Source of the DNA: Candidatus Woesearchaeota archaeon
GTDB taxonomy: Archaea > Nanobdellota > Nanobdellia > Pacearchaeales > GW2011-AR1
Direction of reading: 5' to 3'
NCBI GenBank assembly: GCA_964465795.1
Contig: CAYXLD010000001.1
Coordinates: 5,127-69,126 of the forward strand
Length of the DNA stretch: 64,000 bases
Shown here: in pieces, positions 3,351 through 64,000 of the stretch
Layout of the letters: every line of letters begins with the position of its first letter
Numbering within the stretch: position 1 is the stretch's first letter
Translations under genes and position numbers: made by a program
The notes under the pieces: model-generated
Databases searched by the model: none
Seen by the model: only the letters and a program-made list of their open reading frames with translations
What the model was told of the DNA's origin: nothing

Positions 3351-3358
3351 AAGAAATT

Positions 3359-4689: not shown

Positions 4690-4768
4690 TCTTCCACCAT
4701 ATTAAAAGATAATAATAAAAATTATTTAATTCTTATACTTATCTAGTTTCTACAAAACTTTTATAAAA

Positions 4769-5394: not shown

Positions 5395-5508
5395 TTTTAA
5401 TTATATTATCTAGTTAATATTTCTAGTAATTTCTACTATTTAAATCTTGTTATTTTTATTTTAAAAAAGCGTGCTAATCTTTTTAATCCTTCCCAACCTA
5501 TATAGTAT

Positions 5509-7842: not shown

Positions 7843-7909
7843 ATAATTCTAAAGTAACTCTGCAAACTAATATCCTAACCTTTATTAACCATCCTTCATC
7901 ATTTCAAAT

Positions 7910-9640: not shown

Positions 9641-9742
9641 CCTCTAAAACTGGAATATCTCTATTAGGCATTGTACTAAATTAGAAATCAACAAAGACAT
9701 AATAACAATAAACAATTTAAATACATTATCTCTTAAAAATAA

Positions 9743-11755
9743 ATGGAGAAAAAGAAGAAGAGGGATGAACTTATCTTAGAGGCGAAAAGCTTCTTTAATT
9801 CATATAAAAAAAATATTGTAGATACCGCGAGAGAAGGAGAAAGAGTAGTTAAAATAAAATTCACAGACTTATCAAAATTTTCTCCTGAACTGGCAGATAA
9901 TTTAATAGATAATCCTGAAGAAACCCTAGAGCTTATAGAATCTGCTCTAGAAGAATCTGAATATCTTAAAAACCCTAGAATAAGAATATTAGACTTGCCA
10001 TTAACTTCAAATATTAAAATAAGAAATATAAGAGCAAAACACCTTGATCAATTTATTGTCATAGAAGGAATTGTAAAACAGGCCTCTGATGTCAGACCTC
10101 AGGTTGTTAATGCCCGATTTGAGTGCCCTAGCTGTGGCGCAATACTTTCGGTTTTGCAGGTAGATAGAAAATTTAGAGAGCCTTCAAGATGTTCATGCCA
10201 ATGGAAAGGAGCTTTCAAACTCCTATCAAAAGAAATGGTGGACGTTCAAAGATTAGTTATAGAAGAATCGCCGGATTCTTTAGAGGGGGGAGAACAGCCA
10301 AGAAGAATTAATGTCTTTTTGAAAGAAGATCTAGTTGATCCAAAAATGGAGGAGCGTACAACTCCTGGAAGTAAAGTAAAAATTAATGGAGTTCTAAAAG
10401 AAATTCCAGTTCCTCTTCCTACTGGGATCTCTACTAGATTTGATATTGCATTGGAGGCAAATAATCTTATCCCGCAAGAAGAGTCATTTGAAGACTTAAA
10501 CATTTCAGAGGACGATATAAAAGAAATTTTAGAGTTAGCAGCAGATCCAGGAGTTTTTAAAAAACTAGCCCAAAGCATCGCACCGAGCATCTATGGATTT
10601 GAAAAGATAAAAGAAGCAATACTGTTGCAAATATTTAGCGGAGTAAAGAAAATAAAATCCGATGGCGGATCAACTAGGGGAGATATACATATTTTACTAG
10701 TAGGCGACCCAGGAGTAGCCAAATCAGTGATGCTAAAATTTATTTCAACTATTGGTCCTAAAGGAAGGTACGTTTCAGGAAAAGCAGCAACAGCAGCAGG
10801 CTTAACAGCTGCTGTTGTAAAAGATGAATTCCTCAAGGGCTGGTCTCTAGAAGCAGGTGCAATGGTTTTAAGCAATAAAGGCATTGTCTGCATTGATGAA
10901 ATAGAAAAAATGAATGAGCATGACAGATCTACAATGCATGAATCCATGGAACAACAGTCAATAACAATAGCCAAAGCAAATATTCATGCTACATTAAAAG
11001 CAGAAACAACTGTTCTTGCTGCAGGAAACCCTAAACTAGGTCGTTTTGATCCATATACCCCCATTCCGCAACAAATAGACATCTCTCCAGCTTTACTGTC
11101 AAGATTTGATGTAATATTTATAATAAGAGACTTGCCTAATAAAGTTCAGGATGAAGCAGTAGCCTCTCATGTCTTAGAAGAACATAAGCAAGAAGTAATT
11201 AGAGATATTATACCTCCAAAATTAATGCGAAAATATATTGCCTATGCCAAGCAAAAAGTGAAGCCGAAATTAACAGACGAAGCAATTGAAGAAATCAAAA
11301 ATTTCTATGTAAAACTAAGAAACCAATCAGTAAAATCAGATTCTGACATAAAGCCAATTCCGATAACAGCCAGGCAATTAGAAGGAATAATAAGGCTTGC
11401 CGAAGCAAATGCAAAATTACATCTAAATAAAAAAGTAACAGTAAAAGACGCAAAAATTGCAATAGATTTATTAAAAACATCATTATCGCAGGTAGGATAC
11501 GATGAAGAAGCTCAAATATTCGACATTGACAAAATTACAACTGGAATAACCTCTTCAAAAAGAGGAAAAATAATACTTGTCAAAGAAGCTATTTCTAGAT
11601 TAGAGTCTCAGTTGGGAAAATTAATACCTATAGAAGAATTAGAAAAGTCACTGACAGACAAAATTTCTAAAATTGAATTAGAAGAAGCAATAGAGCAGCT
11701 ATCAAAAATTGGAGACATCTTCAAGCCAAAAAATGGATATATTCAAAAAATATAG
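9743..11755 (+). CDS. mcm: MCM replicative helicase
   Basis: Walker A GDPGVAKS, Walker B CIDEIEKM, arginine finger SRFDVIFI, and a zinc-finger CxxC...C N-terminal domain. 670 aa. Confidence 0.9.
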   Translation: MEKKKKRDELILEAKSFFNSYKKNIVDTAREGERVVKIKFTDLSKFSPELADNLIDNPEETLELIESALEESEYLKNPRIRILDLPLTSNIKIRNIRAKHLDQFIVIEGIVKQASDVRPQVVNARFECPSCGAILSVLQVDRKFREPSRCSCQWKGAFKLLSKEMVDVQRLVIEESPDSLEGGEQPRRINVFLKEDLVDPKMEERTTPGSKVKINGVLKEIPVPLPTGISTRFDIALEANNLIPQEESFEDLNISEDDIKEILELAADPGVFKKLAQSIAPSIYGFEKIKEAILLQIFSGVKKIKSDGGSTRGDIHILLVGDPGVAKSVMLKFISTIGPKGRYVSGKAATAAGLTAAVVKDEFLKGWSLEAGAMVLSNKGIVCIDEIEKMNEHDRSTMHESMEQQSITIAKANIHATLKAETTVLAAGNPKLGRFDPYTPIPQQIDISPALLSRFDVIFIIRDLPNKVQDEAVASHVLEEHKQEVIRDIIPPKLMRKYIAYAKQKVKPKLTDEAIEEIKNFYVKLRNQSVKSDSDIKPIPITARQLEGIIRLAEANAKLHLNKKVTVKDAKIAIDLLKTSLSQVGYDEEAQIFDIDKITTGITSSKRGKIILVKEAISRLESQLGKLIPIEELEKSLTDKISKIELEEAIEQLSKIGDIFKPKNGYIQKI

Positions 11756-16411: not shown

Positions 16412-16506
16412 GACCTCGTAGCTCAGCTGGTAGAGCACATGGCTGTTAAAATAAATTAAAAATTACAGCAACCATGGGGTCGGAGGTTCGAGTCCTCCCG
16501 AGGTCG
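16412..16506 (+). tRNA. tRNA-Asn (anticodon GTT) with a ~22-nt intron at the canonical 37/38 position
   Basis: Acceptor GACCTCG/CGAGGTC plus discriminator G. D-arm GCTC-AGCTGGTA-GAGC. Anticodon stem CATGG/CCATG with loop CTGTTAA, where GTT is at 16445-16447. Intron ~16449-16470. T-arm GGAGG-TTCGAGT-CCTCC. CCA is not encoded. Confidence 0.7.
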
Positions 16507-46814: not shown

Positions 46815-48913
46815 CTAATTTAAGCAAGAAAGTTCGTCTTCTGTAGAGTCAGCGCCTTCTTCAGGGTAAGGTACAGGAGGAGAATTTCCCCCTTTGAAAA
46901 GATGATTGAGTAAATAAACAGAGTCAGTTAAACTAACGCCTCCTGAATCATCAACATCTGCCGCGTCTAAACACATTGGCTCTTCTCCACCTTGGAATAG
47001 ATAGCTCAATATTCCAACGGCATCAGATATATCAATTTTATTATCTCTATTTAAATCTCCTCTAATAAATTTCTTAATTTCAGTACAAACATCAGTTTCA
47101 ATATAAATTTCTCCATAAACCTGTTCATCAGGATAATTAATAAAGGCGGTTTTCTGGTCAGAATCAATGGAGTCTATTGTAACAATAGTGCCATATATAT
47201 CTGCCTCTTTTGTCTTTGTACTTTCACTAGCCAGTGCAATAGCGCCCCATTCTTTATCATTACTCCAAGTTCTAATAACTTCATTAATTCCTATTCCATC
47301 ATCTCCAGAATTTCCAGGCTCTAAAGTAACAATCAGGCCGTTAAGTATATCTTTATTATCTTTTTCTTCAAAAATTACTAATGAAGGATAGATAATCTCT
47401 GCTGTATTTTTAGAATTAGTCAAATAAACCTCTATTTTATCTTTGGTGCCGCTGCCTTTTATCTTATAATTAAATTCTGCAATTTTAACAGAAACAAAAC
47501 TATTTTTATCAAGAATATTTATTTTATTAGATACCACGCCACTAATAACATCCCATGAACCTCTGCCATTGTCTTTAAATGTAATAAAGGTATAGCCATC
47601 TCCATCAGGAAATCTAAGATCAGCCAATTTATTTCCGCCGCCATTCCAATTATTAAGATCAATAATCATTGGTTTATACAATGCAACTTGAGCCCCTTTG
47701 TTGCTTTTTATAGTAGGATATATTATAGCGCTTCCTAACCCTATGCTATCAGGATAATTTATTCTAATACTATTGCCATCATCAGATGAAATGCCCTCAT
47801 AACTTACTATATAGTCTTTTCCACCAACGCTGACAGTGCTCAATCCTTCAGCAGTAATTCTTGCATCAATAGTATCTCCTGAGAAAACATTTATAAATTC
47901 TATATTATCATTTGCAGTGCCCATTTGATTCGTTATTGCAGAAACTTTCAAAAGTCTGCCATTATCATCATTACCTATAATAACTAATTCATTTCTCAAA
48001 ATCTTTTCATTTTCAAAAACATGAATTTTTTTTCCATCCAGAGTTTCTAAATCAATAGCATTTCCAGGTTTAACCATAGCTCACTGGAACGCTTTTTCAT
48101 ATCCTTCGTAATCTTTCATTCTTAAAATCATTAGGCTATCTCCATTATTTCTAATAACAAAATCTTCTCTTAAAGAAGTATCATCTTCACCTATGTTTAA
48201 TCTTTTAAAATCAATTCGGAAAGTGCCGAATACAGGATCAATAAAAACATTCCTTGCCGGCGGGAATGTTAAAGTAAGAGCATCTTCATCCGAATCAGGC
48301 GCAATTATACTAAGTACTATTTTTGTGGTTGCAATCGGACCTCCTTCGATCATCACAGATGTACCCTCAATAAATCCTTCATCGATACCTTTCAAAACTC
48401 CTCCGCCATTATTATAAAAAAATAGAGGGATATTATCTTCACCAAGTAAAACAATTCTTTCATTATTAGTTAATGGTGAAATGCTGAATTTTTTTCCAAA
48501 TATTTTGATATCCTTTCCTGTAGATTTTGTAAAGTCAACAGCCCTGCTAAAGGTAATAGAAACCTTATAAAAGTAGTTATTTTCTACAGTGCTCAATCTC
48601 AATCCAAAACTAGGGCCATCAGAACTTGTAGGTTGTTTAGCAAAAATAATTTTAGGATAAGAACCAATTTCTATACCTTGAACATATTCTGCTGCAACAT
48701 TCCCAAAAAAACTGCCTTTTTTTAAAAGAGCAGGCAATTCATTACTATTAATGATGGATTTGACGCTATTCAACGGTTCATTTAAATAAATTTTATTGGC
48801 TGCGGCAAATAAAGGCGTTACCTCTCCAGTACATACGGCCTGTGCAAAAACTCCACTAATAAAAAATATTCCTATTAATCCAGAGAAAAAATAATATAAG
48901 CCCTCTTTTCATA
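46815..48913 (-). pseudogene. Dockerin-domain secreted protein. The body is the two track ORFs 48081..48773 and 46815..48077, separated by an in-frame TGA at 48081-48083. The N-terminal signal peptide lies in other frames.
   Basis: C-terminal tandem dockerin repeats DLNRDNKIDISDAVGILSYL and DVDDSGGVSLTDSVYLLNHL. The ATG at 48913 gives MKRGL..., then a signal-peptide-like ...LIGIFFISGVFAQ in a second frame, then the main frame. Frame switches coincide with an A6 run (48887-48892) and a CCC run (48839-48841). Confidence 0.5.
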
Positions 48914-49955: not shown

Positions 49956-52304
49956 TTAATAAATCACACCGCCATAATCATCTTCATAAGGCAACTCAAT
50001 CTTCCCTAGTTCTCGCAAATCATCCAAATAATTAGCCTTAATTTTCGCCATCGATAGAGTATATAAAATATCACCAATGTATAAACTTCTCTGAACTTGA
50101 TTCTTATAGTCATAATAAGGATTATGATTTATTCCCCCTGGTAATGAATCAATCATCTCATTACTCCAAATATTTTCATAATTTTCATGATAAGATTTCG
50201 TGGCTGTTTCAGGGGCGTACAATTCTGTATTATTGCTCTCCCATTTATCCTCCCAAATCTTAGTCCATGTCTCTCCACTATATCCCGCTCTCTTTGCCCC
50301 TATCAGCTCTTCAGAAGCAGGTCCATACTTTTTTATATCATCAAAATGAGTTATCTGTCCTTTAACTTTAATATAATCTTCTTTTATATCGAAAACATAT
50401 GCTCCCTGCCAGACAGTTTCTCCATAAGCCAATTCAGGTCTCTCATGGTTTTGGGAATTTATTTTAGCCAAAGAAATAGGCAATACAAGCAAATTCCTTT
50501 TTTTATCAAATAAAAATGCTTTATGGTCATATAATGCATTACTATCTGTTCCTCTGTCTCCAATAATGATCTTGGCGCTTTCCTTAGGATTTGCCACATC
50601 CCTAACATCAAATATAGCAATCTTCAGCCCTTGATTAATAACAAAATCTCTGGTAGAATCAGAAACCTCTAAAGTATCTTTTCCTATCCCTATAATATGA
50701 TTCTCGTCATAAGCGTGCAAGTAATCAGAATACCCTGGAATCTTCAAATATCCTAAAACTTTAGGTTCTTGAACATCAGACAAATCAATCACATAAAAAG
50801 GATCAATATTCTTAAAAGTCACTAAATAAGCTCTGTCTCCAATAAATCTTGCAGAATAAATTCTCTCTCCAGGAGCCAAATCTTCAACTTTGCCAATAAC
50901 TTCCAAATTATCATTTAATATATAAACATTATTTTTGCTATTTTCGCTCCAAAATTCCCCAGAAGTCGTGGCTATTCTAAAATATCTATTATTCTCATCC
51001 ATAAAAAATTGATTTAGAACAGTTCCTTTAACTTCTCCTTCGGTCAAGTATTCAATTTCCTCTTCATCAACTCTAATCTTATGAATAACAGTCTTCTCTC
51101 TTTGTTCCCTCAATTCTCTTATAAAATAATTCATGCCTTCATATAATCTCTCATCAAAATTAGATTTAGCCTCCCCACCCAAAGAGCCGGAATAATCAAG
51201 AATAACTTTATTTATTTTGCTGTTCTTTTCATGAAAAGAATCTTTGGAATTTAATACATTTTCTATCTTTATTTTTTCATCAGCTGGAACAATAGGCAAA
51301 ACAACCTGCTCAATCATATCTTCAAAATAATCTCTTTCATTCAAAAATTTAGTGTAAGTCAGATAAATATTTTCACTAGATACATATAAGTTATTGCTCG
51401 CTCCAGTCAAATAAACTTTGCTATTGACCTTTCCATTTTTTATATTTATCGAATTTATAGTATTAAATGTATATCCATAATCCCAATAATCAAAATAATA
51501 AAGATCGTTTATAGCCAATCTTTCTTCAGCACCATTTATTTTTAGCATAGGCATTATAGGATTATCATTATTAACATATTTAGAGCCAATAATATAAACA
51601 TAATCTCCAATCATCCTGGAGTTTATATATTGGCCTTCGATGCTAATTTCTTTATCTAATTTAGGCTTAGTTCTATCACTTATATCATAAATATAAGCAT
51701 AAATGATAGATTCTCCGCCATAATAAGGAGGGAATATTGCTATATCAACAGCAGCTTCTTGTAATTTTGTTTCCTGATCTGAATTTATTGTTTCATATCC
51801 TTGGGCAAAAACAATAAGTCTATCTTCATTAACAAATATTCCCAATAAACTTTTATCCACAAATTCAACTTTACTAATAATTCTCATATCAGAAGCAGGG
51901 AGAGCATTAACAATAACAATCTTATTACCTGCAATATCATAAATGTAATTTCCGTCATTTTTAACTAAATCTGCTTCATCAACTCCTTCCACTTGAACAT
52001 TAGTTTGAGAATAGTCGCTTGCTTTTGCTCCAGACCCTGATTCAGCAGTAATACTTGCCCCATCTCTTTGAAGAAAACTTCTATCTATTGAAGGCAGTGC
52101 TCTTTGTGCAATCTCAAAATTCCCTAAATCCTGGCTCTCTTTCAAAAATTCCTTCAATTCAAAATAAGAATTAAAACTCCTAATTTTATTATTATAAACA
52201 ATTTCATCGCTAGTTTTTGAGTCAAAAACCGATATTGCTATCATAACTAAAACAAAAATTAATAAAACTGCAACAATGCCTATGTTCTTTGTTTCATCTT
52301 TCAT
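49956..52304 (-). CDS. Secreted/anchored beta-propeller-domain protein
   Basis: N-terminal TM or signal segment, then repeated beta-strand-rich motifs (QVEGVDEADLVKNDGNYIY, YVYIIGS, GDRAYLVTF...). Resembles the 'beta propeller domain' secreted-protein family. Its stop codon lies inside the IS target-site duplication. Confidence 0.45.
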   Translation of the reverse strand: MKDETKNIGIVAVLLIFVLVMIAISVFDSKTSDEIVYNNKIRSFNSYFELKEFLKESQDLGNFEIAQRALPSIDRSFLQRDGASITAESGSGAKASDYSQTNVQVEGVDEADLVKNDGNYIYDIAGNKIVIVNALPASDMRIISKVEFVDKSLLGIFVNEDRLIVFAQGYETINSDQETKLQEAAVDIAIFPPYYGGESIIYAYIYDISDRTKPKLDKEISIEGQYINSRMIGDYVYIIGSKYVNNDNPIMPMLKINGAEERLAINDLYYFDYWDYGYTFNTINSINIKNGKVNSKVYLTGASNNLYVSSENIYLTYTKFLNERDYFEDMIEQVVLPIVPADEKIKIENVLNSKDSFHEKNSKINKVILDYSGSLGGEAKSNFDERLYEGMNYFIRELREQREKTVIHKIRVDEEEIEYLTEGEVKGTVLNQFFMDENNRYFRIATTSGEFWSENSKNNVYILNDNLEVIGKVEDLAPGERIYSARFIGDRAYLVTFKNIDPFYVIDLSDVQEPKVLGYLKIPGYSDYLHAYDENHIIGIGKDTLEVSDSTRDFVINQGLKIAIFDVRDVANPKESAKIIIGDRGTDSNALYDHKAFLFDKKRNLLVLPISLAKINSQNHERPELAYGETVWQGAYVFDIKEDYIKVKGQITHFDDIKKYGPASEELIGAKRAGYSGETWTKIWEDKWESNNTELYAPETATKSYHENYENIWSNEMIDSLPGGINHNPYYDYKNQVQRSLYIGDILYTLSMAKIKANYLDDLRELGKIELPYEDDYGGVIY

Positions 52305-52382: not shown

Positions 52383-52967
52383 TCATCTTTTCCTCCAGAA
52401 GTTTAATATTAAAAAAACCAGCAGTGCGAATAATGCTCCGGCAAAAAACAAAAGCCAAACGTTTTGAGCTATAACCATTATGCTATCATTAACTCCTGCA
52501 TCAGCCGCCAAAAAAGAGCTGGCTTCAGCAGATTTTTCCATAGCTAAACCTCTTACCATCTGCTCTCCGCCAACTACATCTGCTGCTTTCTCTAATTTAC
52601 TATCAGTCCATATCTTTATCCCAAAAGCAATCGCTCCAGATATCAAAACACTAGGTATAATTCCCCTCATCATCCTTCTGGGAGAAATAACTATTTTCTT
52701 ATTTGAAATTCTATATTTATAAATTCTTTTCCCTTTAATACTCCATAAAAATCTCTTTGTTTTATCTATCAGCCCAGATTCCTCAAGTTTTCTTATATTA
52801 TACTCAATAGTATTAAGAGGAAGTTTTAAATTATTTGAAATCTCGCTCTCGCTTAATTCGCTATTGCTTAACAATCCCAATATTTTCTTGGCAGTTTTAT
52901 TCGAAATTACATCAGCAATCTTCCCTGTTCTTGGGTCATCTAAATCAATCATTATCGAATTTGACAT
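52383..52967 (-). CDS. Membrane-anchored winged-helix (ArsR-like) transcriptional regulator
   Basis: N-terminal HTH (LSESEISNNLKLPLNTIEYNIRKLEESGLIDK), then two TM helices (IIPSVLISGAIAFGI...; LFFAGALFALLVFLILNFW). Immediately upstream of the beta-propeller gene. Confidence 0.5.
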   Translation of the reverse strand: MSNSIMIDLDDPRTGKIADVISNKTAKKILGLLSNSELSESEISNNLKLPLNTIEYNIRKLEESGLIDKTKRFLWSIKGKRIYKYRISNKKIVISPRRMMRGIIPSVLISGAIAFGIKIWTDSKLEKAADVVGGEQMVRGLAMEKSAEASSFLAADAGVNDSIMVIAQNVWLLFFAGALFALLVFLILNFWRKR

Positions 52968-53090: not shown

Positions 53091-53930
53091 ATGAAAAAGC
53101 GAGTGATATTAATGGCAGGTTTTACTTTTCTTGCCTGCTTATTAACGCAGGTATCCGCATTAAATGCTGATTTTGCAATATACACTGGTTCAGGCACTTG
53201 GGAGCATAGTGTATCCGCATTTGAAAATTTTTTGGAGTGGAAAAATTTAACTTATGAGGAAATAAATTCATGGAATTTAAATCACAATTCTCTCATTGGA
53301 AATTACAAAGCAATTTTCTTTCCTGGAGGTTGGGCATATAATTATAAAAAGTCTATACATTCTTCAGGCAATCAAAACATTAGAGACTTTATTTCATCAG
53401 GAGGAGCATATATAGGAATGAGTGCAGGCGCTTATTTCGCTTGTGATAATGTTCGCTGGGAAAATCAAGACTACCCTTATTATTTAAACCTGTTTCATGG
53501 AGATTGTATAGGCCCTATTGAAGAGATCGCTCCTTGGCCAAATTATGTGATGACAACAATGTCAATAAACAAAAATCATGAAGCAAATATTTATGAGCCC
53601 ATGGCTGAAGATTTTCTATATTATGGAGAGCCGTATTTCATCCCCTATCAAAATCAGGAAATGCAGATACTGGCATCTTGGAATGTAATATCAAATCCAG
53701 CAGCAGATAAAGCTCCTGGAATCATAGGTTTTAACTATGGGCAGGGAAGAGTCCTGCTAATTGGTCCTCATCCTGAAATCGAAGAAGATTCTGATAGAGA
53801 TGGAAATAATTTTGGCGAAGAATTAAATGATAATGGTTCAGACTGGCCATTTCTTTGGACAGCAGTTGATTGGCTATTAAAAAAATCTATCTCGCGGCCG
53901 CCTGAATTTCCACAGGGACAGCCCCCATAA
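53091..53930 (+). CDS. Secreted protein with a class-I glutamine-amidotransferase-like/BPL_N-like fold (hypothetical)
   Basis: Signal peptide MKKRVILMAGFTFLACLLTQVSALNA. GGWAYN...GGAYIGMSAGAYFACD is reminiscent of GATase1-like hydrolases. Confidence 0.35.
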   Translation: MKKRVILMAGFTFLACLLTQVSALNADFAIYTGSGTWEHSVSAFENFLEWKNLTYEEINSWNLNHNSLIGNYKAIFFPGGWAYNYKKSIHSSGNQNIRDFISSGGAYIGMSAGAYFACDNVRWENQDYPYYLNLFHGDCIGPIEEIAPWPNYVMTTMSINKNHEANIYEPMAEDFLYYGEPYFIPYQNQEMQILASWNVISNPAADKAPGIIGFNYGQGRVLLIGPHPEIEEDSDRDGNNFGEELNDNGSDWPFLWTAVDWLLKKSISRPPEFPQGQPP

Positions 53931-54700
53931 TAAACGATACTATTGCACCAATAATTCATTCTTTTTCAGACTCCCCTGATCCTCTAACAGCAGGAGCAAT
54001 CCTAACAATAAAAGCCAATATTACAGACAATATTGCAATCAACACAGTAAAAGTTAATATCTTAGATATCTTCTACCAAATGTCATTAGAACGGGACCAA
54101 TCTGCAACAATCTTATTCGATAATTTCGAATCAGGTTCTCTATCTGGCTGGACAACTTCAGCAGTATCAGGCGGACAAAAATGGACTGCATCTACAACTA
54201 ATCCTTTCCAAGGTTCATGGCATGCCCAGTCTCAACCTCGCTCAACTTCTGAACCAGCATCAACCTTAGAAAAAACAATCCCAACAACAAACTATCAAGG
54301 CATATCAATAAAATACACCAGAAAACTAATTGGCCTAGACGCAGCAGATGAATTCAAAGCAAAATGGTTTGATGGAATAAAATGGAATATTCTAGAACAA
54401 ACAGGGTCAAATTCAGCTAATGACGCCCCATACATACAAAAGTCATTCTCTCTGCCCCAAACAGCAAACAATAATCCAAATTTCAAAATAAAATTTGAAT
54501 GCACAGCAGGAGCAGTATCAGAATATTGCAGAATAGATAATGTAAATATTTCTGCCTCAAGTTCCCCAACAGGACTCTACATATACAAATTTAACACATC
54601 CAATTTAATAAATGACACTTATGCCTACACAATCTACGCCGAAGATACATCAAGTAACCAGCCAGCCCCGCAAGGTGGAGATTTTACGATAATTCTATAG
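53906..54700 (+). pseudogene. Start-less, rearranged fragment of a giant-surface-protein paralog: an Ig-like repeat fragment, then a copy of the conserved N-terminal domain, then another repeat fragment
   Basis: The frame is open from 53906 (after a TGA) with no Met until 54080. Reads ...DTIAPIIHSFSDSPDPLTAGAILTIKANITDNIAINTVKVNI..., then FDNFESGSLSGWTTSAVSGGQKWTASTTNPFQGSWHAQSQP...FECTAGAVSEYCRIDNV (same domain as aa 25-175 of the 1892-aa protein), then ...YIYKFNTSNLINDTYAYTIYAEDTSSN. Confidence 0.45.
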
Positions 54701-54727
54701 AAAAAATTATTTATTAAATTTAATGAA

Positions 54728-54994
54728 TTAAACTTTTGATTCCAATCCGAAAAAAGAACTTTCTTTCAATTTCTTAAATTCTAAAATATCTCTAAAATAG
54801 AAATCATTATCTACACTATGATTTTCTTCTAAAAATGGATCTACCTCATCTAATGAAATTCCCATACAATTAATCTCAGTAACATATCCGCTAGTTTCTC
54901 TTTGTTTCTTAAGAAAAAATGTTTGATATTTAATCAAAACATAATCTCCTAATCGAACATTATATAATAAATCTTTCAGTTTATCTTCATCCAT
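54728..54994 (-). CDS. Hypothetical 88-aa protein
   Basis: ORF only. Confidence 0.25.
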   Translation of the reverse strand: MDEDKLKDLLYNVRLGDYVLIKYQTFFLKKQRETSGYVTEINCMGISLDEVDPFLEENHSVDNDFYFRDILEFKKLKESSFFGLESKV

Positions 54995-55144
54995 ATTTTA
55001 CAAAATATAAAGGACTATATAAATTTTTATGTAATAAGTTCTCATAAATAGCAACCTATATAAATCCAAATTCTTTAAAATACTTATTAAGCATTGATGT
55101 ATATCATTAACGCTAAGCATTAATGCACAAAATAAAAGAGGAAA

Positions 55145-55357
55145 ATGAAAAAAACTAAAAAAGAGCTAGTCACTAATCTGTTAAAAAAAGACAATCAAGG
55201 GTTAACAATAATAGAAATCTCAAAAATATTAAAAATCTCTAGAAACACAGTTGCGGTTGCACTAGCCGAATTAAAAGGTGCTAATCTAATAAGAATAAGG
55301 CCAATTGGGAAAGCAAAATTACATTACTGGCTCAAAGAGAAGGAGATTAAAAAATGA
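55145..55357 (+). CDS. Small winged-helix transcriptional regulator (ArsR/MarR-like), overlapping the start of the giant surface-protein gene by 4 nt
   Basis: LTIIEISKILKISRNTVAVALAELKGANLIRIRPIGKAKLHYWL is an HTH plus wing. Its stop overlaps the downstream ATG (ATGA). Confidence 0.55.
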   Translation: MKKTKKELVTNLLKKDNQGLTIIEISKILKISRNTVAVALAELKGANLIRIRPIGKAKLHYWLKEKEIKK

Positions 55358-58300
55358 AAAAACAAATTACAATTGTTCTTCTTTTCCTATTTTTAATAAA
55401 TTTAGCTTCTGCAATAACAATATTCTCAGATGATTTTGAATCAGGAAATTTAAACGCATGGAATAAAACAAATGTAGCTGGAGCAAGAAATTGGACAGCC
55501 AATCAAACAAACCCCTTTCAAGGCTCATGGCATGCGCAATCCCAGCCAGAAAGCACAACAGAACCAGCAAGCGTTCTATCAATAAATATAAGCACATCGA
55601 ATTACCAAGATATAAGCATATTTTATTATCGTAGGCTTGTAGGCATTGATGCAGGGGATGAATTTCAGATGGAATGGTTTAATGGTACAACATGGGAAAT
55701 CTTAGAATCAACAGGAAGCTCATCAGCAAACAATGCAGTATATTTAGCAAGAAACTTTAATCTCTCATCTGTTGCAAACAATAATCAATATTTTCAAATA
55801 AAATTTGAATGTACAGCAGGAGCAACTTCAGAATACTGCAGAGTTGATAATGTAATAATAACAGGCAGCTCAATCCAAGATACTACTCTTCCAACAGTAA
55901 ACATAATTGCTCCAAGAAATAATACCATAACAACCTCAGCAATAAATAGCTTCAATGCTACATTTTCAGATAATATAGCCTTAATCAATACAACATACTA
56001 TTTATGGAATTCTACAAATTCTCTAATAAATATCACTGCTATAACGCTATCTGGCTTAGATGGAAGCATAAATTTAACAATAACATTCCCTTACGAGGAT
56101 AAGTTCACATGGAATTATTTAGCGGCAGATACTTCAAATAATTTCGCATATAATTTAACAAACTTCACAATTCTTTACGATGCAACACTGCCCTCAATAA
56201 ACTACACCATCCCAACTCAACAGTCAGGCACTATAAAAAATTCCAACTTCATAGAAATAAATATCACTGCGTCAGATTTATACTTGCAAGCACTAACAAT
56301 TCGTCTATTCAACTCAACAAAAGATCAAGTAAGAACAAACACCTCTACTAATTCCCCTTTCTATATAAACTATCTAAATCTTCAAGACGGGCTATATTTC
56401 TACAATTCATCAGCAAATGATACTGCAGGAAATACAAAAAATTTAGGAACAAGAAATATAACTATAGATACAACCCCTCCTTCAATAACAATATTAACAG
56501 AATCGCCACTAGATCCAACAACCTACTTTCAAAATAATATATATCAATTCAACGCAACAATAACAGACTTAACTCAAATACAATCAGTGAAATTAGAATT
56601 CAATGGAACAAATTACACGGCAGCAAATCCAGCAGGGAATACATATAACGTCTCTATTTCTAATCTCCCAGCTGGAGTTTTCAACTATAGATGGTTCGCA
56701 AACGATTCAGCAGGCAACACAAACAATTCAGAAACAGGCCCATATACGATAAACAAAGCTCAATCCCAGCTCAATCTTACATTAAACAATACTGAAGGAA
56801 ATATTACAATAATAGCCAGCACATCAATCATTCTAAACGGAACTCTAATCAGAGGTGACTCTCCAACTATTCTAAAATTATATAAAAACAGCACTCTAAT
56901 AAATGAAGGTCTTTCTCCGCTATATAATTTAACAAACTTCACAATTCAAGGATTATATAATATAACTATAATTTATACATCTAGCCAAAACTACACGGAG
57001 AATTCAAAAACCTATTATGTAAATGTAACATCTCAGCCAGATATAACTTCTCCTTACTTTACAGCAACTCCGGCTAATACAACAATAAATTACACTCAGG
57101 GCTTCCAAGTCAATTTTGAAGCATCAGATAATATAGCCATAGACAGTTTCTCAATCAATTGGACAACTAATTTCGAAATAAATAAAACAGGTTCTTTAAA
57201 AAACACAACAAAACTCTCTGCAGGAGCATATCTGATAAATGTATCTATCAATGATACCTCGGATAATAAAAATTCAACAATATATCAGGTTATTGTAAAT
57301 AAAATACCAAGCCAGGTAAATACCTTCCTAAACCATTCAAGATTAAATATAACAATACTGCAAAACACGGCAATATATCTAAACAGTACTCTTATTACTG
57401 GAGAAGGAATAATAAAATTATATAAGAATAACTCTTTAATAAATCAAGGGCAATCTCAGTTATCAAACCTAACCAATTTCACAACAATAGGCACATTTAA
57501 TATAACAACTATCTATGAAGAAACACAAAATTATTCATCAAATTTTGAGGCTTTTTACATTAAAGTTACGCAAACTCTAGATAACATCTCTCCATATTTC
57601 ACAGCAATTCCAGCAGACACAACAACAAGCTATCCTAACAATTTCGGAGTGGATTTTGATGCATCAGACAATAATGCAGTAGACAATTTCAGAATAAACT
57701 GGACAGATACATTCCAGATAAATCAATCTGGCTTTTTAAATAATACAAAGAATCTTGGAACAGGTTTCTATTTAATAAATATAACTATAAATGACACATC
57801 AAACAATTTAAACTCGACAATCTACTCTGTTAATATAACTCAAAATAATACATATGTTATATCAATATCTCTCTCGCCAGCATCATCAGTAATATATCCA
57901 ACGCAAACAACAACTGCAGGGAATAGCTGTCCTCAAGAACTATCATGTACTCTTTTCAGAAACAACATCTCAATAACAAATCCAGAAATAAAAACTCTGG
58001 GAGCAGAAACATACCATTACTTATACAACACAACAGGAAATACTAATTACTCCTCCAAAACAATAAGCTCATTGCTAATAATAAATCAAAACACAAGCTC
58101 CAACATTTCTTTATTTCTAAATAATACCCAAAACAATATAACAATAATAAATGGAACAAGTATCGATATTAACACTTCTTTGATTATAGGAACGGGTCAG
58201 ATAGAACTATATAAAAACAATACTCTGATTAATATAGGAAATTCATCCTTGCATAACTTAACATTGTTCAACACAATAAACTCATTCAATATAACTGCAA

Positions 58301-61032
58301 TTTATAGAGGGAATGAAAACCACACTTCTGCAACAAAAACATTCTACGTAAATGTAATCCAAATTCCAGACACAACTTTCCCTCTAGTTTCAATCATTCA
58401 ACCACAAAACATTTCTTATAACACTCTTCCCCTGCAATTAAACTACTCTGTCTCAGATAATAATCTCCAATCGTGCTGGTATTCAATAAACAATGGAATA
58501 ACAAATACCTCAATTACATGTGGAAGTAACATATCTTCTCTCTCAAGCAATCAGAACTCAAACATATGGACAATCTATGCAAATGACAGTGCAGGAAATA
58601 TAAATTCTTCATCAGTTACATTCTTCGTAGACTCAATAATCCCCCTAATCTCATTCACAAATCCAACAAAACAAAACAACAGTATTTTATCTCAAAGCTC
58701 AATATTCATAAACACCTCAATAAATGAAACAAATTTCGCAAACATCACATTCTCTCTGTATAATATAACTTCATTAGTAAATATGACAATATTTGCTTCC
58801 CAGATTCTATCAATAAATTTTACGTCCTTGCAAGATGGAGTATATTTCTACAACGTAACAATCAAAGACACATTAAATAATCAAAATACAACAGAAACAA
58901 GAACAATAACTTTAGATAAAACAGCTCCTTCTATATTTATAATAAGTCCGCAAAATATAACATATTTTAACACAACGATTTTAATTAATATATCAAGCAA
59001 TGGAAATATAGTCTGGTTTTTCAACACAACAGCTAATGAAACTTACATCTCGCCAGTCTATAGAACATTAGACGGTTCAAACACTATTATAGCTTACACA
59101 AATGATTCTCTGGGAAATATTAATTCAACATCAATAACCTTCTATGCAACTGAAATAAATTTAAACTGTGAAATAGGCGGCCCGTATCAGCAAGGAGCAT
59201 TAGTCCTAGTACAAGGCAATTTATCAAATAAAACAACTCCTCTAACTAATCAGGAAATAAATCTAACGATATACAAAAATAATCTTGCAAACACTTCAAA
59301 AATATTATCAACCTCAAACGATGGCAGTTTTGAAACATCCATAACAAATTTATCAATCGGGAATTATATACTAAATGCTACAACTTCATACCTGCAATCT
59401 AACAAATCGTGTATTGATAACTTTCAAATAGGCTCGCAGGCATCATTAATAATCTATAAAATAGCCTCTGTTCACAACACGACTAATGACACAATTTATT
59501 ATAATATAACATTAAAAATAATAAATAGCGGCGGTGCTGATGCAACAAACACAAACATTACTGACTCTGATTCAGAATCTTCCCCATATGTAATTGGAAC
59601 GCTATCTCCATCTTCAAGCTATCAAATCAGCTATCTAAAAAACTTTTCAAGGCAATCTTCAACATTTTATTATCTAACTTCAGCAGCAGCGCTAAGTATA
59701 GATTCATACTCAAACTCTTTAATAACAGCAAATTCTACACAAATAAACCTAACGGTCCCAGCAACACAAATCGGGAAGCAAATAATAATAACAAAAAATA
59801 TTTTATACATTACAGAAACATCCCTGAATGTCACGTACAATGTGTCTTCAACTCTTTATAATTCAGGGGATGAAGACTTATCAAGTATAAATTATATAGA
59901 TACTGACATTTCAAGTGTAGCCAGTCAGTTAAATCTTACAAAAGCTAATTCAAAACAATTCGAAAATACACTACTAATTTCAAAGGCAGCATCAAATATA
60001 AACCATGAATTTGCTTTAGGTACAGCAACAATAGACTCTTTAAACTTTTATTCGAACCGCCCGAAGATTAACATTCCTGGCTATGGCGGTCCAGCAGATA
60101 TTATAGTTTATGCTCCTTCATCGATTCAAGCATCAGCATCATTTGACGCGGCAATAGAAATAAAAAATGTAAATCCAGATATTGGGCAGGACTTCCCGAT
60201 AAATTATTGGATAACTAATAATGATGAAACGCAAAATTTTTCATCAGGCCAAAAAACAATTTATGTTGGGGCCAATAGCTTAGTTAATACAACAATAATG
60301 CAAACCTCTCCATCGGCAATTGGCATATATAAACTAAAAGCACTTGCAATATGGGCGGGAGGTTCAGCATCTGCTTTTGAAAGCTTTGATGTAGTTTCTA
60401 AAATAATAATAGAAGAACCTCAAGAGTCCTCATCTCAATCAAGAAGCAGTTCAACAACAGACTCTTCAGTAAAAATTCCTTCAGAAAAAAATGAAAGCAA
60501 ACCTTCTGAAAAACAGGAAGCAGAAGCTGAAATAAAAGAAATAATCTGCAATCCCCCATATATAAGGCATGGTTCAGAATGTTGCCTAGATCAAAACAAC
60601 AATGGCATTTGCGACGAAGATGAAAAGAAAGACTTCAAAGAAGCTCCAAAATCCGATATATTGGCCTCCATTACAGGATTTATAGTCAATAATATTACAA
60701 ATATCGAAATAGTAAACAAGATAATAATACCAATTATATTAATAATTATTATAATTCTAATAACATTATACATAATAAAAAGAATAAAGAAAAAACCAAA
60801 AGACAAAAAGAGGCTAAAAACACTAATAAACCTAAAGGTTTATACATCAGACGGAATAGAGATTGGCAAAGTAGAAGAAATATTCATAAAAGACCATAAA
60901 ATACACAGCATAAAGATAAAACTCCATAAGAAAAAGAAATTTAAAGCCAAAGGAATTATAATATCCTATAAAGCTGTTGAAGCAGTTAAAGATATAATAA
61001 TTATAAAAAGCAATATAATAGAAAGAATTTAA
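55354..61032 (+). CDS. Giant (1892-aa) cell-surface protein: signal peptide, conserved ~150-aa N-terminal domain, more than a dozen Ig-like repeats rich in N-glycosylation sequons, Cys-containing stalk, single TM anchor (~60715-60777), cytoplasmic PRC-barrel-like tail (~60796-61029)
   Basis: MKKQITIVLLFLFLINLASA signal. N-domain FSDDFESGNLNAW...WHAQSQP...FECTAGATSEYCRVDNV. Repeats begin with D-x-T-x-P-S/L-I (DTTLPTVNI, DATLPSINY, DTTPPSITI, DKTAPSIFI, DSIIPLISF). Very many N-x-S/T sequons. TM IIIPIILIIIIILITLYII, then KRIKKK. Tail LKVYTSDGIEIGKVEEIFIKD...GIIISYKAVEAVKDIIII is PRC-barrel-like. Confidence 0.8.
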   Translation: MKKQITIVLLFLFLINLASAITIFSDDFESGNLNAWNKTNVAGARNWTANQTNPFQGSWHAQSQPESTTEPASVLSINISTSNYQDISIFYYRRLVGIDAGDEFQMEWFNGTTWEILESTGSSSANNAVYLARNFNLSSVANNNQYFQIKFECTAGATSEYCRVDNVIITGSSIQDTTLPTVNIIAPRNNTITTSAINSFNATFSDNIALINTTYYLWNSTNSLINITAITLSGLDGSINLTITFPYEDKFTWNYLAADTSNNFAYNLTNFTILYDATLPSINYTIPTQQSGTIKNSNFIEINITASDLYLQALTIRLFNSTKDQVRTNTSTNSPFYINYLNLQDGLYFYNSSANDTAGNTKNLGTRNITIDTTPPSITILTESPLDPTTYFQNNIYQFNATITDLTQIQSVKLEFNGTNYTAANPAGNTYNVSISNLPAGVFNYRWFANDSAGNTNNSETGPYTINKAQSQLNLTLNNTEGNITIIASTSIILNGTLIRGDSPTILKLYKNSTLINEGLSPLYNLTNFTIQGLYNITIIYTSSQNYTENSKTYYVNVTSQPDITSPYFTATPANTTINYTQGFQVNFEASDNIAIDSFSINWTTNFEINKTGSLKNTTKLSAGAYLINVSINDTSDNKNSTIYQVIVNKIPSQVNTFLNHSRLNITILQNTAIYLNSTLITGEGIIKLYKNNSLINQGQSQLSNLTNFTTIGTFNITTIYEETQNYSSNFEAFYIKVTQTLDNISPYFTAIPADTTTSYPNNFGVDFDASDNNAVDNFRINWTDTFQINQSGFLNNTKNLGTGFYLINITINDTSNNLNSTIYSVNITQNNTYVISISLSPASSVIYPTQTTTAGNSCPQELSCTLFRNNISITNPEIKTLGAETYHYLYNTTGNTNYSSKTISSLLIINQNTSSNISLFLNNTQNNITIINGTSIDINTSLIIGTGQIELYKNNTLINIGNSSLHNLTLFNTINSFNITAIYRGNENHTSATKTFYVNVIQIPDTTFPLVSIIQPQNISYNTLPLQLNYSVSDNNLQSCWYSINNGITNTSITCGSNISSLSSNQNSNIWTIYANDSAGNINSSSVTFFVDSIIPLISFTNPTKQNNSILSQSSIFINTSINETNFANITFSLYNITSLVNMTIFASQILSINFTSLQDGVYFYNVTIKDTLNNQNTTETRTITLDKTAPSIFIISPQNITYFNTTILINISSNGNIVWFFNTTANETYISPVYRTLDGSNTIIAYTNDSLGNINSTSITFYATEINLNCEIGGPYQQGALVLVQGNLSNKTTPLTNQEINLTIYKNNLANTSKILSTSNDGSFETSITNLSIGNYILNATTSYLQSNKSCIDNFQIGSQASLIIYKIASVHNTTNDTIYYNITLKIINSGGADATNTNITDSDSESSPYVIGTLSPSSSYQISYLKNFSRQSSTFYYLTSAAALSIDSYSNSLITANSTQINLTVPATQIGKQIIITKNILYITETSLNVTYNVSSTLYNSGDEDLSSINYIDTDISSVASQLNLTKANSKQFENTLLISKAASNINHEFALGTATIDSLNFYSNRPKINIPGYGGPADIIVYAPSSIQASASFDAAIEIKNVNPDIGQDFPINYWITNNDETQNFSSGQKTIYVGANSLVNTTIMQTSPSAIGIYKLKALAIWAGGSASAFESFDVVSKIIIEEPQESSSQSRSSSTTDSSVKIPSEKNESKPSEKQEAEAEIKEIICNPPYIRHGSECCLDQNNNGICDEDEKKDFKEAPKSDILASITGFIVNNITNIEIVNKIIIPIILIIIIILITLYIIKRIKKKPKDKKRLKTLINLKVYTSDGIEIGKVEEIFIKDHKIHSIKIKLHKKKKFKAKGIIISYKAVEAVKDIIIIKSNIIERI
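58590..58918 (+). repeat. 329-bp block, identical as far as I can read, to 62078-62406 in the downstream paralog
   Basis: tgcaggaaatataaattcttcatcagttacattcttcgtagactcaataatccccctaatctc...caataactttagata is present in both genes in the same codon phase. Flanking sequence is clearly diverged. Confidence 0.75.
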
Positions 61033-61034
61033 AA

Positions 61035-64000
61035 ATGGTAAAAAAAGAGGTAAATTTGTTGATTCTCTCAACTATAATTGTAATTATCTTTATTGTCTCA
61101 GTAAATGCTGCGACAATCTTTACAGATGGCTTTGAATCAGGTAGTTTATCAGGTTGGACATTAACCACAGGTACTAATATGAACAATTGGACAGCGTCTA
61201 CAGTAAACCCAAATAGCGGAAGCTGGCATGCTCAATCACAACCACAAGGATTAAACTTGCCACCAAGCACGATGAATCGCACGATAAGCACTGCAGGATA
61301 TCAAAATATTAATTTCAGTTACTATCATCAATTAGTAGGAATTGATCCTGGAGATGAATTCACAGTTGCCTGGTTTGATGGCATAGGATGGATTACTGTT
61401 GAAACAACTGGCTCCAATGCTTCAGATGAATCTTCTTATTCTTTAAAAAGTTTTCTTCTACCAAGTTCTGCTGACAATAATCTAAATTTTAAAATAAAAT
61501 TTGAATGTACAGCAGGAGCAGTTAGTGAATTCTGCAGAGTTGACGAAATTTCGATTACAGGAGATGTTATAGACACTACTCCCCCAATCGTAACCATTAA
61601 TTTCCCAGCAAACAACGCATTCTACAAGTCAACACTAAATTTCAACGTTTCTTTAAATGAAAATGGCTCTACAATCTACTCTTTAAATGGCGGAATAAGC
61701 AATAAAACGATGCTATATACCACTGACAATCTAAGCCCCTTTGGAACATTATTTAATCATACTAATAATTCAATTGCAGATGGCACTTACACTTTTCAAG
61801 TTTATGCAAACGACACAAATGGAAATAAAAACTATACAACGACAACACAATTTACATACGATACAATTAATCCATTGCTAAAGATAATTCAACCTCAAAA
61901 TACTACTTACAATACAGATTCCTTACAAATAAATTTCACAGTTTCAGACGTTAATCTAAATTCATGCTGGTACACTAATAACAATGGGCAGACAAACACA
62001 ACCTTATCAAACTGTCAAAACGCCTCTTATTCAGCACAGCAAGGCTCAACAACTCTTCTTTTATACGCTAATGATTCTGCAGGAAATATAAATTCTTCAT
62101 CAGTTACATTCTTCGTAGACTCAATAATCCCCCTAATCTCATTCACAAATCCAACAAAACAAAACAACAGTATTTTATCTCAAAGCTCAATATTCATAAA
62201 CACCTCAATAAATGAAACAAATTTCGCAAACATCACATTCTCTCTGTATAATATAACTTCATTAGTAAATATGACAATATTTGCTTCCCAGATTCTATCA
62301 ATAAATTTTACGTCCTTGCAAGATGGAGTATATTTCTACAACGTAACAATCAAAGACACATTAAATAATCAAAATACAACAGAAACAAGAACAATAACTT
62401 TAGATACAACAGCCCCATCCTTAAACCTAACAATACCAAAAAACATCTCTTACAATAGTATTCAAACAGAATTAAATTATACAATATCAGATACTAATCT
62501 CCAATCATGCTGGTATACAACAAATGGTGGAACAACTAATACTTCAATAATATGCGGAAATAACATATCTTCTCTCTCAAGCAGTCAAGGCTCAAATACA
62601 TGGATAATTTATGCAAATGACAGTGCAGGTAATGCTAATTCCCCTTCTGTAACATTTTTCGTGGATTCTATCATTCCATCTTTATCTATCATAACACCGA
62701 CAGAAGGCTCAACATTTGGAACAAACACAAGTCTAGCACTAAACTTCACAGTTTCAGATACTAATCTCCAGTCTTGCTGGTATAACATAGATAATTCAAA
62801 CAACATAACTATCCAAAATTGTTTGAACACAACATTCAATACATCTGCTAGCGAGCATACTCTATTCTTATATGCAAATGACAGCTTAAACAATGAAAGA
62901 AAAGCAAATGTAAGTTTCACTGTATCAATCGGAGCACCTACTATAACGCAATCTTCTCCTATAAACATATATCTAAATTCTTCTCAAACAACATTTTATT
63001 ACACTGCAACAGATGTGGATCTTAATGCATGTGAAATTTGGGGAAATTTCACAGGCCAATATTTATTAAATCAAACAAATTCCACATTAATTTCAGGCCA
63101 GCAAAGTCAATTTAACATAAGCCTTTCAGATAACGGTTATATATGGGCAATAAAATGCAACGATACTTTAGGAAATTCAGCCATAACAGGCAATAAAACC
63201 TTCTCGATAGATACAATATATCCAAAAATAACCTTATCGGAGCCTTCAGGCACAAAAACTTCTAGAAACAATATACCAATTACATTTACAACTTCAGACA
63301 ATAACATACAATCTTGTTGGTATAACTTATATAGGGGGCTAAACTTAGAGATAGCTAATACAACTATAAGCTGTTCACAATCATCATTTTTTAATACAAC
63401 TGTTGATGCCTCTTTCACATTGAATTTTTATGTAAATGATTCTGCTAATAATATAAACACATCATTAATATCATTTAATGTCGATACATCATCCCCTTCA
63501 AACGGGGGCGGTTCAGGAGGGGGAGGATCATCAGGGGGAGGCGGAATATCTGCAAAAGGAAAAAATGAAACTTTTTCTTTAGAGATAAAATTGCTAGAAA
63601 CTATTGCAATAAAAAGAGGGACTAATATATCGCTGAATTTAGAAGTAACAAACAAAGATAAAAAATTCGCTAATAATTGTAGAATAATCCTAAATAGTCC
63701 TCTAAAAAATTATGCCATAAATTCAGAAATTAAAGGATTAAGCCCTGGGGAAAAATTCATCTTTAATATTTTTATCAATATTCCGCTTAACTCTGAAATA
63801 GGCAAATTTAATTCAGAAATATCAGTAAAATGTGAAGAAGGATCAAAATCAATAAATCATGATATTTTTGTTTATAGAAATAGCTTCGAAGCAAGACTAT
63901 TAAATTATGAAAGAGAAACCGATAGGTTAAAAATTACATATGTGCTTGAGGAATTCTCACAAAAAGATCATGATATTCAGCTCAATTATAAGCTTACTGA
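61035..64000 (+). CDS. Second giant surface protein (tandem paralog), 5' part only; runs off the window
   Basis: MVKKEVNLLILSTIIVIIFIVSVNAATIFTDGFESGSLSGWTLTTG...WHAQSQP...FECTAGAVSEFCRVDEI, then DTTPPIVTINFP... repeats, and a Gly-rich linker (SSPSNGGGSGGGGSSGGGGIS at ~63480-63545). No stop seen before 64000. Confidence 0.7.
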   Translation, partial: MVKKEVNLLILSTIIVIIFIVSVNAATIFTDGFESGSLSGWTLTTGTNMNNWTASTVNPNSGSWHAQSQPQGLNLPPSTMNRTISTAGYQNINFSYYHQLVGIDPGDEFTVAWFDGIGWITVETTGSNASDESSYSLKSFLLPSSADNNLNFKIKFECTAGAVSEFCRVDEISITGDVIDTTPPIVTINFPANNAFYKSTLNFNVSLNENGSTIYSLNGGISNKTMLYTTDNLSPFGTLFNHTNNSIADGTYTFQVYANDTNGNKNYTTTTQFTYDTINPLLKIIQPQNTTYNTDSLQINFTVSDVNLNSCWYTNNNGQTNTTLSNCQNASYSAQQGSTTLLLYANDSAGNINSSSVTFFVDSIIPLISFTNPTKQNNSILSQSSIFINTSINETNFANITFSLYNITSLVNMTIFASQILSINFTSLQDGVYFYNVTIKDTLNNQNTTETRTITLDTTAPSLNLTIPKNISYNSIQTELNYTISDTNLQSCWYTTNGGTTNTSIICGNNISSLSSSQGSNTWIIYANDSAGNANSPSVTFFVDSIIPSLSIITPTEGSTFGTNTSLALNFTVSDTNLQSCWYNIDNSNNITIQNCLNTTFNTSASEHTLFLYANDSLNNERKANVSFTVSIGAPTITQSSPINIYLNSSQTTFYYTATDVDLNACEIWGNFTGQYLLNQTNSTLISGQQSQFNISLSDNGYIWAIKCNDTLGNSAITGNKTFSIDTIYPKITLSEPSGTKTSRNNIPITFTTSDNNIQSCWYNLYRGLNLEIANTTISCSQSSFFNTTVDASFTLNFYVNDSANNINTSLISFNVDTSSPSNGGGSGGGGSSGGGGISAKGKNETFSLEIKLLETIAIKRGTNISLNLEVTNKDKKFANNCRIILNSPLKNYAINSEIKGLSPGEKFIFNIFINIPLNSEIGKFNSEISVKCEEGSKSINHDIFVYRNSFEARLLNYERETDRLKITYVLEEFSQKDHDIQLNYKLT
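62078..62406 (+). repeat. Second copy of the 329-bp block shared between the tandem surface-protein paralogs
   Basis: See 58590-58918. Confidence 0.75.

Follow-up and report, generated by a model that had tools for sequence, protein, structure and literature searches.

A jelly-roll head domain shared by a secreted enzyme and two giant surface proteins in a conserved gene module, found mostly in DPANN archaea: a candidate attachment module

The galactose-binding-like jelly-roll fold is common to the carbohydrate-binding module (CBM) families CBM4, CBM16, CBM22 and CBM61, MAM domains, the subrepeats of reelin and the ‘cleaved adhesin’ domains of gingipains. Few archaea of the Woese-, Pace- and Nanoarchaeota type, within DPANN, have been brought into culture, and their means of attachment to partners has yet to be established. 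Here we examined a stretch of 64,000 nucleotides (hereafter the window) from Candidatus Woesearchaeota archaeon (GenBank assembly GCA_964465795.1, contig CAYXLD010000001.1), towards the end of which an earlier note, made from the sequence without database searches, had placed a cluster of surface-protein paralogs built on one uncharacterised domain of ∼150 amino acids. We report that this domain, which we call the head, is a divergent, uncatalogued family of the galactose-binding-domain-like β-jelly-roll superfamily. It is carried by three products of one conserved gene module, namely a secreted enzyme (gene A) and two long surface proteins (genes B and C), and on balance we lean towards the view that it serves all three as a ligand-binding head. 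What is new here is the family and the gene arrangement; the fold and the general logic are known, and neither is surprising.

The earlier note had assigned one domain to three loci, and TBLASTN analysis with each copy as query against the six-frame translation of the window identified exactly these three (54107–54562, 55411–55872 and 61104–61562), with pairwise matches at E values of 1e-52 to 5e-64 and 47–62% amino acid identity. No fourth copy was found in the 64 kb, the remaining matches all having E≥0.27. With their boundaries refined, the copies are head A (54104–54568, within the 3′ part of gene A), head B (55411–55884, the copy used for structure modelling) and head C (61104–61574, within gene C), all on the forward strand, as are the other features of the module. 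The alignment of the three contains 68 invariant columns. Most of the motifs proposed earlier hold, with minor deviations: the sequence is NPNSGSWHAQSQP and LPPSTM in copy C, GLD and not GID in copy A, and FQIKFEC in copy B. The two cysteines described as invariant form a C-x8-C pair inside FECTAGAxSE[FY]C and are indeed retained in all three copies and throughout the close subfamily; many members of the wider family lack them. The acidic residues E10 and D146 vary little or not at all; other invariant positions include W17, W28, G38, P46, D80, D83, W89, G92, W95 and E133–A138, and the cysteines are C134 and C143. Since DNA identity among the copies peaks at 72–78%, in their best-conserved 99 nucleotides, we regard them as old paralogs and not as assembly duplicates.

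In searches of Pfam-A and NCBIfam the three copies gave no match at E≤1, and no model matched the domain region of ten family representatives; the domain was rightly called uncharacterised as far as the family libraries are concerned. A model of copy B (AlphaFold2, 27-sequence alignment, mean pLDDT 95.9) is all-β with 11 strands and shows the two-sheet β-sandwich with paired N- and C-terminal strands, within ∼130–170 amino acids, of a jelly roll. Comparison of the model with viral protein models using Foldseek returned CBM-like parts of tail fibres and tailspikes.

The closest Pfam link was to reelin subrepeat B (PF21471), whose gathering threshold of 27 bits was passed by two strong family members, P0130 (48.1 bits; this protein holds three copies of the head domain) and P0133 (28.9 bits), while the window copies had no match to it at E≤1. 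In the profile hidden Markov model (HMM) alignment, the canonical Asp-boxes of P0130 and P0133 (TTDGGATW and KDGGTTW) fall on the W-F-[DN]-G-x-x-W of the window copies, which is 1–2 residues shorter; the C-x8-C pair is specific to the window's subfamily. Reelin subrepeats are separated by EGF domains in an animal matrix protein, whereas the window domain is found on prokaryotic surface fibres and enzymes. A more distant link leads to CBM_4_9 (PF02018, comprising CBM4, CBM9, CBM16 and CBM22, the last represented by the Xyn10C module in 4xup and 4xuo). The family profile matched CBM22 (4xup) with E=2.6e-4 to 3.4e-4, the sole near-significant profile match in the PDB, and 7 of 53 family segments matched CBM_4_9 below threshold (best E=1.4e-4). 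The gathering threshold of CBM_4_9 was reached neither by the window copies, which gave no match, nor by any member tested. The two families have in common an N-terminal F-E-x-G-x-x-x-W strand and use as an accessory module on secreted hydrolases; they differ in that identity is 8–15% and subthreshold, and that the head lies mostly at the N-terminus of giant anchored proteins and has no known ligand. With MAM domains, which are eukaryotic and have a conserved pattern of four cysteines, the likeness is in fold alone: the head has only two cysteines, differently arranged, and none of the Pfam scans returned a MAM match. The gingipain domains (K1, K2 and K3) are specific to Bacteroidota and likewise have no significant sequence match to the head. 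Finally, the tip of the Bdellovibrio mosaic fibre Bd2133 (8ok3, 8ond) and the CBM-like tips of phage tail fibres resemble the head as distal recognition modules on a fibre, but these fibres are trimeric and nothing points to trimerisation of the window proteins. The sequence likeness to Bd2133 is marginal and partial (E=0.0099 over the C-terminal 58 positions). We thus consider the head a new sequence family of a well-known fold, tied through transitive homology to reelin subrepeats and, at a greater distance, to CBM_4_9. It connects accessory modules of bacteria and archaea with the fold of the reelin subrepeats.

A profile search of the kind that the earlier note had proposed revealed a large family. 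Using HMMER against 1.84 billion representative sequences we obtained 3,197 clusters at E≤1e-3, of which 1,165 reached E≤1e-10 and 158 reached E≤1e-30. A word-indexed homologue search had returned only 31 proteins, a figure that the exhaustive search exposes as an underestimate due to low sensitivity. The domain is thus neither rare nor, in view of its link to Reelin_subrepeat-B through divergent members, a new fold, and its ∼3,200 sequence clusters could become a new Pfam or CBM-type family. To describe architectures we considered the 150 best representatives together with earlier homologue matches, 173 domain-bearing proteins altogether. The domain was N-terminal in 83 of these, internal in 25 and C-terminal in 20, the other 45 being short proteins or fragments, and there were one to five copies per protein. 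Its non-catalytic Pfam partners included Big_13, CARDB, fn3, PKD and cadherin-like arrays; among the catalytic ones, which are of several unrelated kinds, were Peptidase_S8, PETase-like, SASA esterase, polysaccharide lyase, Pel9A-like (pectate-lyase-like) β-helix, Peptidase_C25, Metallophos and BPL_N domains. These architectures are those of a putative portable binding module.

The cysteine-containing subfamily was almost restricted to metagenome-assembled genomes (MAGs) of DPANN archaea, and a scan of viral contigs found no relatives of it. Copies of the cysteine-containing head, 44–50% identical to the DPANN ones, were also seen behind a glycine-rich linker in a few lipoproteins of Myxococcales/Polyangiaceae (locus L036, 9563–10456; locus L038; P0018–P0021), the neighbours of which are further Gly-linker lipoproteins. 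These may reflect gene transfer between domains of life. In four relatives (P0005, P0012, P0017 and P0067) a segment of ∼45 amino acids resembling a ribbon-helix-helix (RHH) protein (MxKKKVTLS...YxxFxKYC...) stands in frame before the signal peptide or transmembrane (TM) segment and the head; this represents a DNA-binding fusion tethered to the membrane or else a regulator gene that lies upstream and lacks its stop codon. NCBI names the relatives only as ‘PRC-barrel domain-containing’ or ‘Ig-like domain-containing’, and in the literature on DPANN surface proteins, PRC barrels and Woese-/Pacearchaeota adhesins we found no description of the domain or the module.

As the earlier note had suggested, the content of the cluster was compared across related genomes, here 50 genomic loci fetched with a trimmed alignment of the family (A4). 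The nearest relatives of the region come from MAGs labelled Nanoarchaeota, Woesearchaeota and Pacearchaeota, a relationship that places the organism, very probably, in DPANN, and most genomes with the module are DPANN genomes. A conserved order emerged: gene A (enzyme plus head), a winged helix-turn-helix (wHTH) gene, gene B and, in some genomes, gene C. In 24 of the 50 loci gene B comes after gene A, and in five (L001, L002, L003, L011 and L013) gene C is third; many loci have A and B only, or a single gene. The wHTH gene was present in 12 loci and lay directly upstream of gene B in 10; the PRC-barrel tail of gene B was found in 8 and its stalk in 9. Heads of gene A orthologues are 62–79% identical and those of gene B orthologues 53–80%, compared with 51–68% between A and B heads, and the C heads are the most divergent (36–80%). 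Because heads are closer to their orthologues than to their neighbours, the paralogy must be older than these lineages.

Conservation within gene B is uneven. The first 100 amino acids, which hold most of the head, are the best conserved between genomes (67–76%) and the next 100 follow at 60–66%; the stalk and tail rank next, and in the immunoglobulin (Ig)-like spacer identity falls to 0–40% with large indels, so that spacer length differs by hundreds of residues among close relatives. That the head is the best-conserved part of the protein fits a fixed ligand. The earlier description of the cluster as a ‘variable adhesion system’ is consequently misleading: synteny is conserved, the paralogs are old, the head is the most conserved part and variation is concentrated in the Ig spacer. 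Part of this spacer has been exchanged between neighbouring genes. A patch of 356 nucleotides in gene B (58576–58931) is 97.8% identical to 62064–62419 in gene C, and B/C tracts were also seen in L001 (763 nucleotides, 88% identity; 6110–6863 and 9636–10392) and in L011 (217 nucleotides, 86%; 7397–7613 and 10707–10923). Near-identical tracts amid otherwise diverged Ig regions point to recurrent gene conversion between B and C. We rejected mis-assembly across the 356-nucleotide patch, since gene B aligns collinearly with its orthologues to the left and to the right of it. One further locus, L014, encodes a giant of 2172 amino acids (1706–8221), preceded by a wHTH gene, that shares the stalk, TM segment and PRC tail of gene B but begins with an unrelated N-terminal region, so that heads appear to be exchangeable.

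Gene B (55354–61032, 1892 amino acids) has the features of a type-I membrane glycoprotein. Its layout, correctly described in the earlier note, comprises a signal peptide, the head, Ig-like repeats (Big_13, E=2.8e-10), a stalk, a four-cysteine cluster, a TM segment and a cytoplasmic tail, which we identified as a PRC barrel. The ectodomain spacer (55885–60546) consists of the variable Ig-like repeats followed by the conserved membrane-proximal stalk of ∼400 amino acids (residues ∼1290–1700). It contains 112 N-x-S/T sequons where 53±6 were expected from shuffled sequences (7.0 per 100 amino acids, z about 10), as against 0.3–0.8 per 100 amino acids in the window's cytoplasmic proteins; the head, with 6 sequons for 3.5 expected, is not enriched. 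The cysteine cluster (C1732, C1743, C1744 and C1753; 60547–60612) lies close to the membrane and is kept in P0039. The TM segment (residues ∼1790–1808; 60721–60777), seen in the sequence, is followed by a Lys/Arg-rich stretch and then, on the cytoplasmic side, by the PRC barrel (residues 1818–1886; 60805–61011), which matched PF05239 with E=1.9e-9 and 37.8 bits, above the cutoff of 21.2; P0039 has the same tail. The order signal peptide, head, spacer, TM segment, basic cytoplasmic tail supports the earlier placement of the head, which occupies the N-terminal, membrane-distal end of anchored giants rich in sequons. In being a very large, secreted, repeat-rich and anchored protein of a reduced-genome archaeon, gene B resembles the giant adhesin-like proteins of DPANN and Candidate Phyla Radiation (CPR) organisms and the Ca2+-stabilised repeat adhesins, and a weak match to the Ca_tandemer repeat was noted (E=0.0022). 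It differs from these in belonging to a defined module, in which the head is on an enzyme and two fibres and a wHTH gene and a cytoplasmic PRC barrel are included. We draw attention to this unusual architecture, in which a giant of adhesin-like type ends in a PRC barrel on the cytoplasmic side; PRC barrels have been discussed as small division-associated proteins, with no mention there of a transmembrane fusion (PMC10120694).

Gene C (61035–64000) begins after the 2-nucleotide gap reported earlier and encodes a signal peptide, the head and Ig-like repeats before running past the window end, where comparison with L001 indicates that it is cut ∼130 amino acids short of its C-terminal TM anchor. 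Its orthologues, with stop-to-stop frames of 953–1306 amino acids, end in a TM segment and a short basic tail and have no PRC barrel. The claim of two full-length anchored genes therefore stands for gene B, whereas the anchor of gene C is visible only in orthologues. The regulator placed ahead of the cluster is a wHTH gene of 70 amino acids (55145–55357; HTH_24 and TBPIP winged-helix matches) preceding gene B here and in related loci. Its stop codon overlaps the gene B start by 4 nucleotides (ATGA), and its product, presumably co-transcribed with the module, probably regulates it.

The first of the three loci proved to be part of a different kind of gene. Gene A (53091–54700) is annotated as two open reading frames (ORFs), P0175 (272 amino acids) and P0001 (206 amino acids), because of a frameshift of one nucleotide. 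The 5′ part (53091–53930) encodes a signal peptide and a BPL_N domain of the class-I glutamine amidotransferase-like (GATase1) type and ends at a premature TAA; the frameshift site is a run of five C (53922–53926) that is one C short relative to orthologues. The NCBI call for the 3′ part covers only the 206-amino acid ORF (54080–54700), but its frame is open from 53906, and the first half of an Ig-like domain, which the inserted head splits, is already encoded upstream of its Met. Insertion of one C in the run yields a fused protein of 536 amino acids that is collinear throughout, at 69% identity, with P0047, a family representative of 537 amino acids consisting of BPL_N and then the head. The repaired junction, PQGQPPIINDTIAPII (...PQGQPPIINDTIAPIIHSFSDSPDPL), agrees with that of intact orthologues such as the one in L014, PQGQQPPINDTIPPVI (...PQGQQPPINDTIPPVIHSLSDTPDPL). 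Gene A is unbroken in the 35 related loci with a BPL_N-like frame match, whose complete stop-to-stop frames span 403–554 amino acids. The one-C repair, the collinearity with P0047 and the intact orthologous frames together establish that the first head locus is the 3′ half of gene A, and the split annotation can be corrected. The split is caused by a 1-nucleotide deletion, either a genuine mutation or a misread homopolymer; the short C run may represent a sequencing error, a pseudogene or phase variation by slippage.

Weak matches to Big_7 (residues 18–43) and Big_13 (residues 177–253) flank the gene A head, which is nested between Ig-like halves here as in P0008, P0009 and P0047. The locus is thus not the surface-protein paralog that had been supposed but the C-terminal, putative targeting part of a secreted enzyme, with the head nested and not N-terminal. 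That it might be an independent gene or a decayed paralog was ruled out by the conserved nested layout and the BPL_N fusion.

The enzyme domain is a member of the class-I glutamine amidotransferase-like/BPL_N family (BPL_N, E=1.2e-23), with a GMSAGAY nucleophile elbow and an HPE motif. Assignment to Peptidase S51 (PepE/cyanophycinase) fell below threshold (23.0 bits against a cutoff of 23.9) with an alignment limited to the G-x-S-A-G-A elbow, as did assignment to PepE itself (NF003642, 26.8 bits against 156). Among 35 homologues (alignment A7), 26 have Cys at the elbow position and 9 have Ser; these nine are the nearest relatives of the window's gene A, and most bacterial homologues have Cys. 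The His-Pro-Glu motif is kept in 34 of the 35. Bacterial homologues have type IX secretion system (T9SS) sorting, dockerin or PKD domains in the head's place. We assign the product to a secreted hydrolase family of predicted activity.

The heads thus sit at the tips of two anchored, glycosylated fibres and on a secreted hydrolase, an arrangement best accommodated by a ligand-binding head common to the three products, which is the reading that, by a modest margin of confidence, we prefer. The heads would recognise one class of ligand, most likely a glycan of a partner or host envelope or of extracellular matrix. Displayed at the membrane-distal tip of the gene B Ig-repeat spacer and on its gene C counterpart, they would tether the cell to the ligand, and the gene A enzyme would be concentrated by its head on the same substrate as the fibres. 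A glycan is favoured because the nearest neighbours in structure and sequence, and the use of the family as an accessory module, point that way. Of the earlier suggestion of a lectin- or CBM-like head the CBM-like part is supported, the binding itself being predicted. Several considerations weigh against this reading. The fold is no proof of glycan binding, since other jelly rolls of the superfamily bind proteins (MAM, reelin, ephrin receptors) or serve a purely structural purpose. A DPANN way of life, and the existence of a host, are presumed from the taxonomic labels that related MAGs carry. The frameshift in gene A, if it is no sequencing error, may leave this genome with an inactive enzyme arm. 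Lastly, adhesin tips exposed to host-driven selection usually diversify, and the head is conserved instead.

The main rival, which we consider unlikely, is that the head is a protein–protein module of the MAM or reelin kind whose homophilic or heterophilic contacts assemble the three products into one surface complex, with the enzyme docked on fibres B and C or the fibres oligomerised, and no foreign ligand bound. The nearest Pfam link, to Reelin_subrepeat-B, is in keeping with such a role, as is the presence of the same, strongly conserved head on three co-encoded proteins. However, the domain has been appended promiscuously to many unrelated secreted hydrolases and to small lipoproteins that have no partner, and many loci have only A and B, or one gene.

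Structural and receptor roles are less likely. It is improbable that genes B and C encode S-layer-type glycoproteins of which the jelly roll is the outermost canopy or cap, with no specific ligand. Archaeal S-layer glycoproteins are typified by a signal peptide, an abundance of sequons and a TM anchor at the C-terminus, and gene B has all three, its sequon enrichment being extreme, as well as a conserved membrane-proximal stalk. Yet the same domain is found on a soluble enzyme and many bacterial hydrolases, spacers of close relatives differ greatly in length, and L014 keeps the stalk, TM segment and PRC barrel under a different head, as would be expected of a swappable functional tip and not of a lattice element. 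We give still less credit to the head as an extracellular sensor that signals to the PRC tail, to the RHH-like N-terminus of some relatives or to the wHTH protein, gene B then being a receptor and not an adhesin. The conservation of the cytoplasmic PRC barrel in 8 related loci, the translational coupling of the wHTH gene to gene B and the four in-frame RHH-like segments are consistent with signalling, but a single-pass protein with a flexible spacer of ∼1,600 amino acids would be a poor transducer, genes A and C have no cytoplasmic domain, and the RHH fusions may be artefacts of gene calling because an internal Met gives a perfect signal peptide. That the three copies are an assembly artefact, the outcome the earlier note had named as fatal to its cluster, or a chance similarity can practically be discarded: although the source is a MAG and B and C have the near-identical patch in common, the copies are far too diverged in protein and DNA, collinearity of gene B with orthologues holds to either side of the patch, and the three-gene order of the five loci, with orthologues more alike than paralogs, refutes it.

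Returning to the ligand-binding head, a much bolder version of it would be a dedicated DPANN host-contact module, in which one reelin/CBM-like head targets both a secreted GATase1 amidohydrolase of the Ser type and the two anchored giant fibres to a single structure of the partner envelope. The PRC-barrel domain family has been implicated in archaeal cell division (CdpB, CdvA), and the main fibre, being coupled to a PRC barrel, would link contact to the division or cytoskeletal machinery and to the wHTH regulator. We regard this version as a long shot. What the analysis offers DPANN biology is a concrete, conserved and easily recognised module that is a testable candidate for attachment.

Some further features of the surroundings were recorded. 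Between gene A and the wHTH gene ∼440 extra nucleotides contain an ORF of 88 amino acids (54728–54994, reverse strand) that had no Pfam or NCBIfam match and no relative among the 50 fetched loci. Upstream of gene A lie, both on the reverse strand, a secreted Beta_propel (PF09826) protein (49956–52304) and an ArsR/Lrs14-like HTH protein that has a TM segment at its C-terminus (52383–52967), and the same pair precedes gene A in L010. The window has a G+C content of about 32% and encodes MCM, GatD/GatE-type and other archaeal housekeeping proteins. A 95-nucleotide tRNA (16412–16506) was identified by an Rfam match (60.5 bits) and missed by ARAGORN, probably because it contains an intron. A protein of 420 amino acids (46815–48077, reverse strand) matched Dockerin_1 with E=5e-6, in what is an archaeal genome.

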